Part shown: positions 25,173 to 26,882 of the stretch, one piece after another
Layout: each line of letters starts with the position of its first letter
Numbering within the stretch: the first letter of the stretch is position 1
NCBI GenBank assembly: GCA_031550185.1
Contig: JAVBOU010000008.1
Location: forward strand, 1-57,382
Length of the DNA: 57,382 nucleotides
Source of the DNA: Kiritimatiellia bacterium
Lineage (GTDB): Bacteria > Verrucomicrobiota > Kiritimatiellia > RFP12 > JAVBOU01
Direction: 5' to 3'
Notes under the pieces: generated by a model
Database searches by the model: none
What the model was told of the DNA's origin: nothing
What the model saw: the letters and a program-made list of their open reading frames with translations, nothing else
Program-made: the position numbers and the translations under genes

Positions 25173-26882
25173 TCAGCGCATTTTTTTCATTTCAAACTTT
25201 TCGCCCTTGAGCGCGCGCAGGACGGGTTCGCCCCAGTAAGGCGTGGGCGTGTAATCCCAGTCGAGCAGAAGGCACGGCGAAGAGCGCGGATGGAAGCACC
25301 ATGCGGTCCAGTTGAGGCGGTGCTTTTGGATGCAGCCGATCATGTCGGCGCCCCAGGTCAACGGGTCTTCGGTCTTTCCATTTTGCCACGGCATGGGTGT
25401 GGGCTGGCAACCGACTTCGCCAACCAGAATCGGGTACTTTTCGGCGGCGTCGAGGAAACGTTTTTGCCAGTTACCCTTCCACGGATAGACGTGTGTCTCG
25501 TACATGATGCCCTGGCCGTCCGGCGTGTCGTCAAGCGCGTAACCGTTGAGGACGCCGCCGAGATCATAGGCCCAGTCGAGTCCGCCGGCGGAGACGAGAT
25601 TGCGCGCGCCGGTTTTGCGGACGGTGTCAACGAGCGCCTGCATGCCGACGGAGCGGACAGCGTCCTGGCTCGCCTTGTTCTCCGCGGCGACGCCTTCTTT
25701 TTCTTCGCCTTTTTTGGCAACGTCGCCGCCGTTGCGCCACTCCTCCCAGGAGATGCCGTGGGGTTCGTTGAGCAGGCCGAAAATCACGCCGGGATGGTTG
25801 GCGTAACGCGTCGCGGCGTCCTGCCAGAAATCGGCGTGCGCGGAAGTGGCAGCGCGGTATTCATGAAGGTCGAGCACGAGATAGGCGTTGTTCTGCTGGC
25901 AAAAGGTTGCCACCTGGTCGACGAGTTCGCGATACTTCACGCCGCCATCCTTTTGATATTTGCCGTGACCAAACCAGAAGGGCGATTTGACCGCGAGGCG
26001 AATGACGTTGGCGTTCCAAACCTTGATCGCCTTCTCGACCGACTCCATGATGTGCTCGCCGCCTTCGGTCCATTCCATGGAGGCGACGGCGACGCCTTGC
26101 AACCAGACTTCCTGGCCGTCTTTCATGGAGACGAGGCGGTTGCCTTTCACCTTGAGCGGCGCGCTGGTGACGCCTTCGGGAAGAGGCATGGCCTTGCTGC
26201 GCACGAGTTGCGGCGGCGGTGGCACGGGCTTGGGTTCAGGCTTCGGAATGGCGCTGGCCTTGATGGGCGTGAGTACCATGTCGTCAATGTCCATCGTTCC
26301 TTTTTTCGCCTGGAAAAGGCTGGGCATGAACGCGAGATACGTCGCGCCGCCGGGGACGACGAAGTTAAGCTCTCGCGTCTGCCAGCCGTCGGACGTGCCC
26401 TTGAAATTCGGGTTCGGCGGCTTCGGGTTGACTGTCTGATGGCTGGCGTTTTTAAACTCCATCATCATCCGCGCGTCGTACCAGCTTTGCGCGCCGACTT
26501 CGACATCCTGCCAGCGCACGCGAAAGGTCATCTTGAGCGCCTCCGTGCCGTTCGGCACTTGCACCGGATGATAAATCATCACATGCTTGCCGGGCTCGGT
26601 GGAGGTGATGCGCAAAAAGCGGTTTCCGTCTTCAACCGGATAACTGATGCCGGCCTTTACCTCCGGCCATTGCGCGGCGGCGCCTTGTTCGCTAACCTTT
26701 TGAAAATCCCCGTTGGCGATCAAGTTTTCGTCCGCGGCGTGGCAGAGCCCCTGCCATGCCACGCAGACGGCGAGCATCAATGCAAATGCGGGGCGTTGTT
26801 TCAAGGTGTGTTCTGTTCGAGTCACTGGAATCTCCGGTTGGTTGTTGGTTTGGCATGAGACGTTTTCCATTGCGGTTCCCAT
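25173..26882 (-). CDS. secreted CBM4_9-like + GH5 glycoside hydrolase
   Basis: GH5 motifs LDLHEY, LLNEPHG and LVGEVGCQP. CBM opening NLIANGDFQK. Signal peptide ...KQRPAFALMLAVCVAWQGLCHA. The start is uncertain: ATG at 26882, or TTG at 26804 giving MKQRPAFAL... Confidence 0.82.
   Translation of the reverse strand: MGTAMENVSCQTNNQPEIPVTRTEHTLKQRPAFALMLAVCVAWQGLCHAADENLIANGDFQKVSEQGAAAQWPEVKAGISYPVEDGNRFLRITSTEPGKHVMIYHPVQVPNGTEALKMTFRVRWQDVEVGAQSWYDARMMMEFKNASHQTVNPKPPNPNFKGTSDGWQTRELNFVVPGGATYLAFMPSLFQAKKGTMDIDDMVLTPIKASAIPKPEPKPVPPPPQLVRSKAMPLPEGVTSAPLKVKGNRLVSMKDGQEVWLQGVAVASMEWTEGGEHIMESVEKAIKVWNANVIRLAVKSPFWFGHGKYQKDGGVKYRELVDQVATFCQQNNAYLVLDLHEYRAATSAHADFWQDAATRYANHPGVIFGLLNEPHGISWEEWRNGGDVAKKGEEKEGVAAENKASQDAVRSVGMQALVDTVRKTGARNLVSAGGLDWAYDLGGVLNGYALDDTPDGQGIMYETHVYPWKGNWQKRFLDAAEKYPILVGEVGCQPTPMPWQNGKTEDPLTWGADMIGCIQKHRLNWTAWCFHPRSSPCLLLDWDYTPTPYWGEPVLRALKGEKFEMKKMR
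26738..26764. repeat. GC-rich palindromic element, copy 6 (inside GH5 signal-peptide codons)
   Basis: GCGTGGCA-GAGCCCCTGCCA-TGCCACGC. On the minus strand it encodes VAWQGLCHA. Confidence 0.85.

Follow-up and report, generated by a model that had tools for sequence, protein, structure and literature searches.

Repetitive extragenic palindromes (REPs) are 20–40-nt GC-rich palindromes that occur in many copies, mostly between unidirectional open reading frames (ORFs) and no more than about 20 nt from the upstream stop codon (PMC3733652). Intragenic REPs have also been documented. Some of them are translated and they are found in excess at ORF N-termini, where a non-coding status is suspected for many (Di Nocera, De Gregorio & Rocco 2013, PMC3733652). 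Opitutus terrae has the most intragenic GTAG REPs known (PMC3733652). Rickettsia palindromic elements (RPEs) are longer, about 100–150 bp, and form in-frame insertions relative to homologues (PMC10969869). Here we describe a family of short hairpins in a 57,382-nt stretch of one contig of a Kiritimatiellia bacterium, hereafter the window; all repeat counts cover these 57 kb. Most copies are intergenic, and three are read in frame within the signal-peptide codons of three genes encoding GH5 enzymes, GH5_1, GH5_2 and GH5_3, where they supply the final nine or ten residues of the predicted signal peptide. Coordinates are collected in Table 1.

Hairpin copies in the signal-peptide codons of three GH5 genes

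Exact pairs of the form GCGTGGCA-N3-20-TGCCACGC were observed 10 times, compared with 0.01 expected from dinucleotide shuffles of the whole window. Three lie inside GH5 signal-peptide codons and the other seven are intergenic or at an ORF edge. The relaxed pattern GTGGCA..TGCCAC yields extra copies at 35403 and 43926; these and a degenerate copy at 57221 are likewise intergenic or at an ORF edge, for a total of 13 copies. The arms GCGTGGCAG and CTGCCACGC stand single in only three places. Since the arms are hardly ever found alone, the unit of the family is the hairpin and not a single word. The overall consensus, GTGGCGTGGCAGAG-n-CTCTGCCACGCCAC, is GC-rich. Subfamily A (GTGGCGTGGCAGA-n3-TCTGCCACGCCAC) has a short loop and spans 23–29 nt, with a stem at times extended to 17–18 bp; its intergenic members lie at 2848, 12101, 48731 and 57221. 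Subfamily B (GCGTGGCAGAG-n6-CTCTGCCACGC) has a long loop and spans 28 nt; its members lie at 17101, 20595, 22862, 35403, 38269 and 43926. The ten intergenic copies are flanked on neither strand by an unpaired tag of the GTAG or CGTC type, and Pfam detected no RAYT or transposase domain in the large ORFs of the window. The window holds a new, lineage-specific, untagged, REP-like hairpin family.

A joint MAFFT alignment of subfamilies A and B was structurally not sensible, so a covariance model, R1, was built from subfamily A alone. It was trained on the four intergenic 29-nt copies only, and the window was searched with filters off. The best matches outside the training set were the three GH5 copies, each over its full length, with scores of 42.4, 34.8 and 28.2 bits (E-values 4e-7 to 6e-4 in this 57-kb search). 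Intergenic subfamily-B copies scored 21–22 bits, below all three. The GH5 copies are identical to the 29-nt consensus at 25–26 positions, loop included, and all seven subfamily-A sequences (four intergenic, three coding) align gap-free and in register. The copy in GH5_3 even has the loop CA.AGCC in common with the intergenic copy at 48728.

A first-pass annotation of this DNA had placed the palindrome in frame in three GH5 signal peptides, and reading of the minus strand confirms VAW(Q/H)(G/S)LCHA in all of them. The three in-frame sites abut (ADE/TD/AEK)NL[ILV]ANGDFQ. In the same frame the intergenic copies translate as VAWQNLCHAT, VAWQNSCHAT and VAWQSLCHAT. Because they read alike, the GH5 peptide is the element's own translation. 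These results support the use of a repeat element as coding sequence, the exaptation that the annotation had offered as one possibility, since the GH5 copies are the same element as the intergenic ones and lie inside genuine signal peptides.

Codon bias and signal-peptide composition might instead have made a palindrome unrelated to the intergenic repeat. Amino acids alone do give much structure, as the same peptide still averages about -19 to -21 kcal/mol when it is recoded, and HA ahead of the cleavage site is a common motif in this cluster. However, coincidence of this kind is hard to reconcile with matches that extend over the full length without gaps and stay in register through the loop, with the low R1 E-values, or with the remaining signal peptides of the window, which R1 leaves unmatched. 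It is close to refuted.

Signal peptides for the Sec pathway and signal peptidase I (SPase I) were recognized by a positive n-region, an h-region of 7–15 residues and small uncharged residues at -3 and -1. As read from the sequence, the three GH5 N-termini have a K/R-rich n-region, an h-region of 11–15 residues (FAL..A.CVAW) and C-H-A at -3 to -1. The closest relatives, P0002 and P0003 (ENA metagenomes), P0005 (Lentisphaerae metagenome-assembled genome (MAG) GCA_012511845.1) and P0006 (JGI sample 3300027904), are 67–75% identical to GH5_3, the query; the closest named GH5 homologue is from a Lentisphaerae MAG. Lentisphaerae belong to the same broad Planctomycetes-Verrucomicrobia-Chlamydiae (PVC) group as Opitutus terrae. 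Among 27 homologues inspected, 3 are N-terminally truncated gene calls and the 24 full-length proteins have signal peptides of 19–30 residues, all ending at the aligned position before xxL[IV]xNG. An AlphaFold2 model of GH5_3 (mean predicted local distance difference test score, pLDDT, 84) has low pLDDT over residues 1–27 with a lone helix at 8–24, and its fold begins at N30 with a first beta-strand at 30–32. Other cluster signal peptides also end in x-H-A (3 of 10 others read: LHA/A, EHA/D and LHA/A, where the slash marks the predicted cleavage site), so the element's C-H-A suits local usage. The N-terminal copies are credited as coding because the signal peptide to which they belong occupies a conserved position among homologues. 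Together the data support a location within genuine signal peptides, at the predicted end of the hydrophobic core and the cleavage site, and cleavage presumably occurs after C-H-A. The fourth GH5 gene (6643–8196) has a signal peptide, MMHAHTFFACAFTATVLHA, without the element, as the annotation had reported, and its fold is weak (-8.8 kcal/mol). A fifth GH5 gene (43960–44973), which the annotation had not listed, encodes a protein (MTLEIPKNAHAWTPFLTVRGNRLV...) with neither a signal peptide nor the N-terminal beta-sandwich domain.

The start of GH5_1 had been assigned to ATG 26882; GTG 26825, with GGAG 6 nt upstream, is the better start. With this change the hairpin lies 50–86 nt into the ORF in all three genes, so that of the range first given, about 50–140 nt, the lower bound stands and the upper one falls. 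The database gene call for GH5_1 began at an internal ATG (MLAVCVAW) and cut off the n-region. If translation really began within or downstream of the palindrome, the element would be 5'-untranslated or intergenic sequence and the enzymes would not be secreted. That internal call is one point for such a late start. Others are that many N-terminal intragenic REPs are probably non-coding (PMC3733652), that GTG (the Val of VAW) is present in all three genes, and that the ENLIANG of GH5_1 contains the TTG which the annotation had considered as a downstream start. However, the other two genes have CTG in place of this TTG and NLxANGDF is conserved as the first predicted strand, so a downstream start is unlikely. 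No Shine-Dalgarno sequence lies ahead of the Val GTG. The in-frame n- and h-regions upstream are canonical and are preceded by a ribosome-binding site (GGAG or GAAAGGAA) or a GTGA coupling overlap, and every homologue is secreted with a signal peptide at the same position. A mis-called start is very improbable.

The cysteine before VAW could also be a lipobox cysteine cut by signal peptidase II, in which case the element's peptide would be the tether of a lipid-anchored enzyme. The motif sought as lipobox was [LVI][ASTVI][GAS]-C, following a short h-region and shared by the orthologues. LAAC in GH5_3 fits the motif, as the annotation had pointed out, and FAAC in GH5_2 is borderline. The PROSITE-style lipoprotein rule forbids charged residues at the six positions that precede -4, and GH5_2, with its Cys at residue 18, passes this rule when it is applied by hand. 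The pattern does not hold across the orthologues, however. GH5_1 reads LAVC, with Val at -1, P0006 has no Cys at that position, and the remaining homologues have plain SPase I-type signal peptides whose end is aligned with C-H-A. In GH5_3 itself an Arg lies just 8 residues ahead of the Cys. Thus the motif fit in GH5_3 stands and lipidation as a common reading does not. The Val at -1 in GH5_1 and the missing Cys in P0006 point to a shared SPase I site after C-H-A, which from these sequences appears more economical than a lipobox. We regard lipid anchoring as improbable.

Origin of the coding copies and a possible role of the RNA hairpin

We favor the explanation, with a probability of roughly 0.62, that a REP-like copy serves as signal-peptide coding sequence and has been kept for its peptide, the hairpin being a passenger. 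In one GH5 lineage a subfamily-A copy sits within the 5' part of the coding sequence, where it is translated. The element's frame yields V-A-W-Q-x-L-C-H-A-(T/A), whose hydrophobic residues complete the h-region ahead of C-H-A, a predicted SPase I site of the small-x-small type. The sequence would be kept mainly for encoding a working signal peptide, and the RNA hairpin (-24 to -28 kcal/mol, 50–86 nt past the start) would be a tolerated, slowly decaying passenger. The three paralogues have the whole signal peptide in common (FAL..A.C-VAW..LCHA), not the palindrome alone, which suggests one capture event or a few homogenizing events. Three independent insertions into the GH5 genes were considered and rejected, since the homology extends into the h-regions upstream of the element.

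Several observations weigh against this explanation. P0006 alone among the relatives has a related signal peptide, LVAGAALCHA (CTC GTG GCA GGC GCC GCA CTT TGC CAC GCG), yet this stretch scores only 11 bits under R1, which leaves the age and direction of the event uncertain. A string in an old, conserved coding segment elsewhere in the window, treated below, is element-like yet no insertion, so resemblance alone is no proof of insertion. Signal-peptide nucleotide identity among the three paralogues (0.67–0.76) is at the level of the mature domain (0.70–0.75), and in other clade pairs the signal peptides are only 0.28–0.55 identical. Something holds the GH5 signal-peptide stretch unusually constant, be it selection on the peptide, selection on structure or gene conversion. 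Finally, the upstream genes (26893, the GH28 gene and 39981) lack a separate hairpin, and the nearest one downstream of them is the signal-peptide copy, 51–129 nt away, an arrangement that would fit a retained RNA role.

The element-like string lies at 55502–55530 in the pectate-lyase-like gene 53583–56108 (plus strand), where R1 scores 23 bits (E 0.008, 24/29). The string, GTGGCGTGTCACAGCCGGCGCCACGCCAC, encodes AVWRVTAGATP, and residues AVWRV.AG..P are kept in homologues down to 34% identity. Its right arm, GCCACGCCAC, is lineage-specific; a 72%-identical orthologue (L047) has ACTTCGCCG instead. A fourth coding insertion was rejected for this site, the residues being old and conserved and the orthologous DNA lacking the right arm. 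The resemblance could be due to chance or to templated conversion.

Templated conversion could likewise account for the GH5 copies. An older ...VA-x3-LCHA signal peptide with GTGGCA and TGCCACGC would have been overwritten by gene conversion toward the consensus of the abundant repeat and then spread among the paralogues. P0006 has VA...LCHA codons at the same place with a low R1 score, and in gene 53583–56108 an old coding segment resembles the element and has a right arm specific to this lineage; both observations speak for conversion. So does a neighbor-joining tree of the mature domains, in which GH5_3 is sister to P0002, a protein without the motif (78% bootstrap), and the three window paralogues are not grouped. 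However, the deeper nodes of this tree are unsupported (6–9% bootstrap), and only four sequences are involved. We regard conversion as possible, though only tentatively so. The data cannot separate an old capture with later loss in some lineages from templated conversion of a VA...LCHA signal peptide that then spread.

The coding copies keep 13, 12 and 11 of 13 stem pairs (0, 1 and 2 mismatches), and no stem pair is altered on both sides in any of the three. The mismatches stem from GCG>GCA, which is synonymous, and CAG>CAC (Q>H). Each copy was recoded synonymously 1000 times with the codon usage of the window. The fractions of recodings that fold at least as stably are 0.078, 0.080 and 0.066, and with null means already at the -19 to -21 kcal/mol given above the peptide sequence dictates most of the structure. 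The proposal that the hairpin throttles translation or secretion is weakly favored at best.

The hairpin may still be actively maintained as an RNA structure while it encodes the c-region. It could stabilize the 3' end of the upstream gene's message or attenuate that gene, or it could act on GH5 as a brake that depends on translation. In E. coli, REPs near stop codons can stabilize or down-regulate upstream messages. This general precedent would fit the arrangement here, in which the upstream genes lack their own hairpin and the signal-peptide copy follows their stops. The stability of all three copies and their 11–13 retained pairs point the same way, as do signal-peptide DNA conserved like the mature domain, unlike in other pairs, and the use in two copies of GCA, a rare codon that accounts for 9% of Ala codons. 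However, there is no covariation and the existing mismatches weaken the stem. The recoding fractions are not significant for any single copy, and the copies are not independent. In addition, the hairpin lies beyond the initiation footprint, and the P0006 version, at -12 kcal/mol, does not fold more stably than its recodings do (fraction 0.63). Active maintenance of this kind is unlikely. Less likely again is a maintained dual function in which the hairpin would serve as the upstream gene's 3'-end or stability element, or as a ribosome-melted attenuator, as well as the signal-peptidase site; if true, it would couple expression of a neighboring glycan-degrading gene to translation of a secreted enzyme. 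We infer that the hairpin is more likely a tolerated passenger than a maintained RNA element.

Intergenic copies, relatives and neighboring genes

The intergenic stems are 11–18 bp long and fold with minimum free energies (MFE) of -19 to -35 kcal/mol, with z-scores of -3.4 to -10 in 9/10 copies; the degenerate copy at 57221 folds at -21.8 kcal/mol with a z-score of only -1.9. In seven copies the hairpin begins 6–14 nt past the preceding gene's stop codon, and one further copy overlaps a stop. They are placed at operon ends ahead of a promoter or within tight gene junctions. Sigma70-like sites lie directly 3' of the hairpins at 2848 (TTGCCA-17-TATAAT, 11/12) and 12101 (TGCACA-16-TATAAT, 10/12), and these are the two best in 2600–12400. 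The corresponding minus-strand matches, 2807–2835 and 12060–12087, probably mark boundaries between transcription units, ahead of the PFK gene and of gene 9331. Three subfamily-B copies sit 31–33 nt ahead of the next ATG, which leaves no room for a promoter. On the transcribed strand 9/10 intergenic copies have no U-tract 3' of the stem, and a minus-strand T-run is present only at 48731. A terminator scan at copy 2848 flagged the plus-strand orientation alone. Across the whole window, Rfam covariance models gave 0 matches at the gathering threshold, and tRNA and tmRNA scans gave none. The GH42 ORF has no stop before the copy at 20595–20622; the element supplies its last 14 residues (RVAETDLCHAQQPT), and the stop follows 16 nt further on (20579–20622). 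An operator for the GntR/LacI-type regulator encoded at 44970–46136 was rejected as an explanation of the family, given an arm spacing of 1–6 nt and the post-stop position of most copies.

Table 1. Features of the window. Positions are those of the whole stretch; R1 is the subfamily-A covariance model, MFE the minimum free energy, and a slash within a peptide the predicted cleavage site.
Feature	Positions	Strand	Remarks
GH5_1, N-terminal beta-sandwich and GH5 catalytic domain	25173..26825	minus	Pfam PF00150, 2e-29
GH5_2	29586..31247	minus	Pfam PF00150, 5.5e-28
GH5_3	38306..39958	minus	Pfam PF00150, 5e-29; PDB sequence search: GH5 cellulases over residues 220-538
GH5_1 signal-peptide codons	26736..26825	minus	M(GTG)TRTEHTLKQRPAFALMLAVCVAWQGLCHA / ADENLIANGDFQ; GGAG 6 nt ahead of GTG 26825
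GH5_2 signal-peptide codons	31167..31247	minus	M(GTG)KRTHHLHLSFALVFAACVAWQGLCHA / TDNLVANGDFQ
GH5_3 signal-peptide codons	39881..39958	minus	MHKPGKPLRFALALAACVAWHSLCHA / AEKNLLANGDFQ; ATG 39958 with GAAAGGAA upstream
GH5_1 in-frame site	26764-26737	minus	TGC GTG GCA TGG CAG GGG CTC TGC CAC GCC GCG = C-VAWQGLCHA-A
GH5_2 in-frame site	31193-31165	minus	TGT GTG GCG TGG CAG GGG CTT TGC CAC GCC ACG = C-VAWQGLCHA-T
GH5_3 in-frame site	39909-39882	minus	TGC GTG GCA TGG CAC AGC CTC TGC CAC GCC GCG = C-VAWHSLCHA-A
Coding hairpin of GH5_1, encodes VAWQGLCHA(A)	26734..26762	minus	R1 34.8 bits; 25/29; 12/13 pairs; MFE -28.4 kcal/mol (50-nt context)
Coding hairpin of GH5_2, encodes VAWQGLCHAT, best preserved	31165..31193	minus	R1 42.4 bits, E 3.6e-7; 26/29; 13/13 pairs including G-U; MFE -24.2
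Coding hairpin of GH5_3, encodes VAWHSLCHA(A)	39879..39907	minus	R1 28.2 bits; 26/29; 11/13 pairs; MFE -26.1
Subfamily-A hairpin, 18-bp stem	2840..2878	minus	12 nt past stop of PATR gene 2890-5523; -34 kcal/mol; then sigma70-like promoter of PFK gene
Subfamily-A hairpin, 17-bp stem	12093..12131	minus	6 nt past stop of 12137-17062; -34.6 kcal/mol; then promoter-like site
Subfamily-A copy	48728..48756	minus	Divergent region, GH127/fucosidase gene; closest relative of signal-peptide copies
Degenerate subfamily-A copy	57221..57249	minus	Near window end; R1 44.5 bits, but a training sequence
Subfamily-B copy, 11-bp stem, 6-nt loop	17101..17128	minus	14 nt past stop of 17142; next ATG 38 nt on
Subfamily-B copy	20595..20622	minus	GH42 ORF tail reads through (RVAETDLCHAQQPT, then stop)
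Subfamily-B copy	22862..22889	minus	8 nt past stop of 22897-25101
Subfamily-B copy	35401..35428	minus	104 nt past stop of 35532; 31 nt ahead of ATG 35369
Subfamily-B copy	38269..38296	minus	10 nt past GH5_3 stop
Subfamily-B variant	43924..43951	minus	9 nt past stop of fifth GH5; 31 nt ahead of ATG 43892
Proteins with shared C-terminal motif	2890, 9331, 12137, 17142, 22897, 26893, 32655, 35532, 39981	minus	

Weaker palindromes occur inside two giant proteins of the window. The pattern GTGGCA-n12-TGCCAC at 15072–15095 and 43111–43134 falls at homologous positions (..EASWQ....AT..) of FN3-like repeats in 12137–17062 and 39981–43892, with weak model scores of 11–15 bits. These palindromes are probably driven by conserved residues.

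Similar hairpins were found past genes in relatives. L001, which carries the P0006 gene, has CGTGGCAAGTC-GTCAT-GACTTGCCAC followed by a T-run at 2622–2646, 11 nt past a stop, and L003 has CCGTGGCA-n30-TGCCACGG at 2850–2895, 17 nt past the P0003 stop. L001 also has CGTGGCAAG-n8-CTTGCCACG at 815–850, within the P0006 GH5 gene (AAWQADELATA). The post-stop hairpins of the relatives have the same outer arms, CGTGGCA/TGCCACG, and other interiors. That the arms recur in organisms with orthologues of only about 70% identity is a hint of a sequence-specific partner. Other palindromes in the relatives are unrelated. One, with 13-nt arms TTGGCGCAACAGT/ACTGCAGCGCCAA, lies at L046 423–449 in the signal-peptide codons of P0005, 59–85 nt past the start and thus at the same distance as the GH5 hairpins; its fold is not better than that of recodings (fraction 0.33). 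The others are intergenic, an inverted repeat with 20-nt arms (TGCGGCGACCTGGCGCCGCT) and a 40-nt spacer at L001 180–258, and a hairpin of roughly 140 nt built of CACAAAGGA repeats at L047 3439–3576.

Database searches did not turn up the family elsewhere. Among GTDB representative genomes the pattern GCGTGGCAGAG-N1-8-CTCTGCCACGC was matched four times, always singly, and the matches belong to three unrelated lineages (Rhodopirellula twice, Muribaculaceae and Clostridiales); no genome containing the family emerged. In JGI metagenomes the signal-peptide/subfamily-A pattern gave 0 matches and a looser pattern 38 single, unrelated perfect palindromes. A concatenated-motif query for VAWQxLCHA in other proteins returned 180 word-sharing candidates, none with E <= 10, and an N-terminal profile search returned three distant fragments only, all without the motif.

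Nearly all genes of the window are on the minus strand and form a large glycan-degradation cluster. It contains five GH5 genes, GH28, GH42, GH127, GH29-like and GH43 genes, pectate-lyase-like proteins, many large secreted PATR-repeat proteins and the GntR/LacI-type regulator. The GH5_2 start overlaps the GH28 stop as GTGA (31244–31247), suggesting translational coupling, and the signal-peptide hairpin is the first hairpin past GH28. In the relative L002 an equivalent of the short fifth GH5 (216–1256) directly adjoins the P0002 gene; their counterparts in the window are separated by the 1303-residue protein 39981–43892. Nine large secreted PATR-repeat or giant proteins encoded on the minus strand share the C-terminus [ST]L[FL][LMFI][ILV][RK]-COOH (for example GSLFLIR, GLFMIR, SLFMVR, SLFFLR and TLFILK), preceded in the PATR proteins by W..K.NN...W..K. 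This motif lies outside any Pfam family and may be a C-terminal sorting signal.

Comparison with known palindromic repeats

At this locus a DNA repeat, selfish or structural, provides a functional stretch of protein, namely the cleavage region of a signal peptide, in a clean example that lends itself to checking. As it happens, the reading frame of the element was already suited to the x-H-A cleavage motif that the host prefers. Automatic gene callers mis-handle such repeat-in-signal-peptide sites. Because a caller cut the n-region of one paralogue by choosing an internal ATG, N-terminal intragenic REPs should not be dismissed as non-coding by default. The REP-like family is itself new, and the presence of its outer arms in related uncultured bacteria suggests a partner still to be found.

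In two further classes of element the likeness to the window family is partial. Intrinsic terminators are also GC-rich stem-loops directly past stops, and two window copies precede the best promoter-like sites of their region. Unlike terminators, however, 9/10 window hairpins have no U-tract, and the stem sequence is conserved, also in L001 and L003. The uptake sequences of Neisseria (DNA uptake sequence, DUS) and Pasteurellaceae (uptake signal sequence, USS) are conserved 10–12-mers that form inverted pairs after genes, occur occasionally in coding sequence and act as terminators; they are also abundant as single words. The window family too consists of inverted pairs past genes and occasionally in coding sequence, but its arms are rarely single (3 unpaired 9-mers in 57 kb).

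RPEs are closer, as palindromic repeats that are found both between genes and in frame, where they add a conserved, tolerated peptide. The window element is only 29 nt long, however, and the signal peptides that contain it do not clearly exceed those of relatives in length (26–30 compared with 19–26 residues, with no clean gap in the alignment), so that the comparison does not establish an insertion. REPs are the nearest likeness. Like them, the window family is a short GC-rich palindrome, with 13 copies in these 57 kb, mostly extragenic and near the upstream stop, and like intragenic REPs some copies lie inside ORFs and are translated. It differs in having no unpaired GTAG/CGTC tag and no RAYT gene in the window, and its copies are single, not dimers. 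Many N-terminal REPs are suspected to be non-coding (PMC3733652), whereas the N-terminal GH5 copy is supported as truly coding. Repeat DNA turned coding sequence is not unprecedented, and the present locus is a tidy case with precedents. Intragenic and N-terminal REPs were already known; this locus adds an untagged family and a well-supported coding N-terminal copy.

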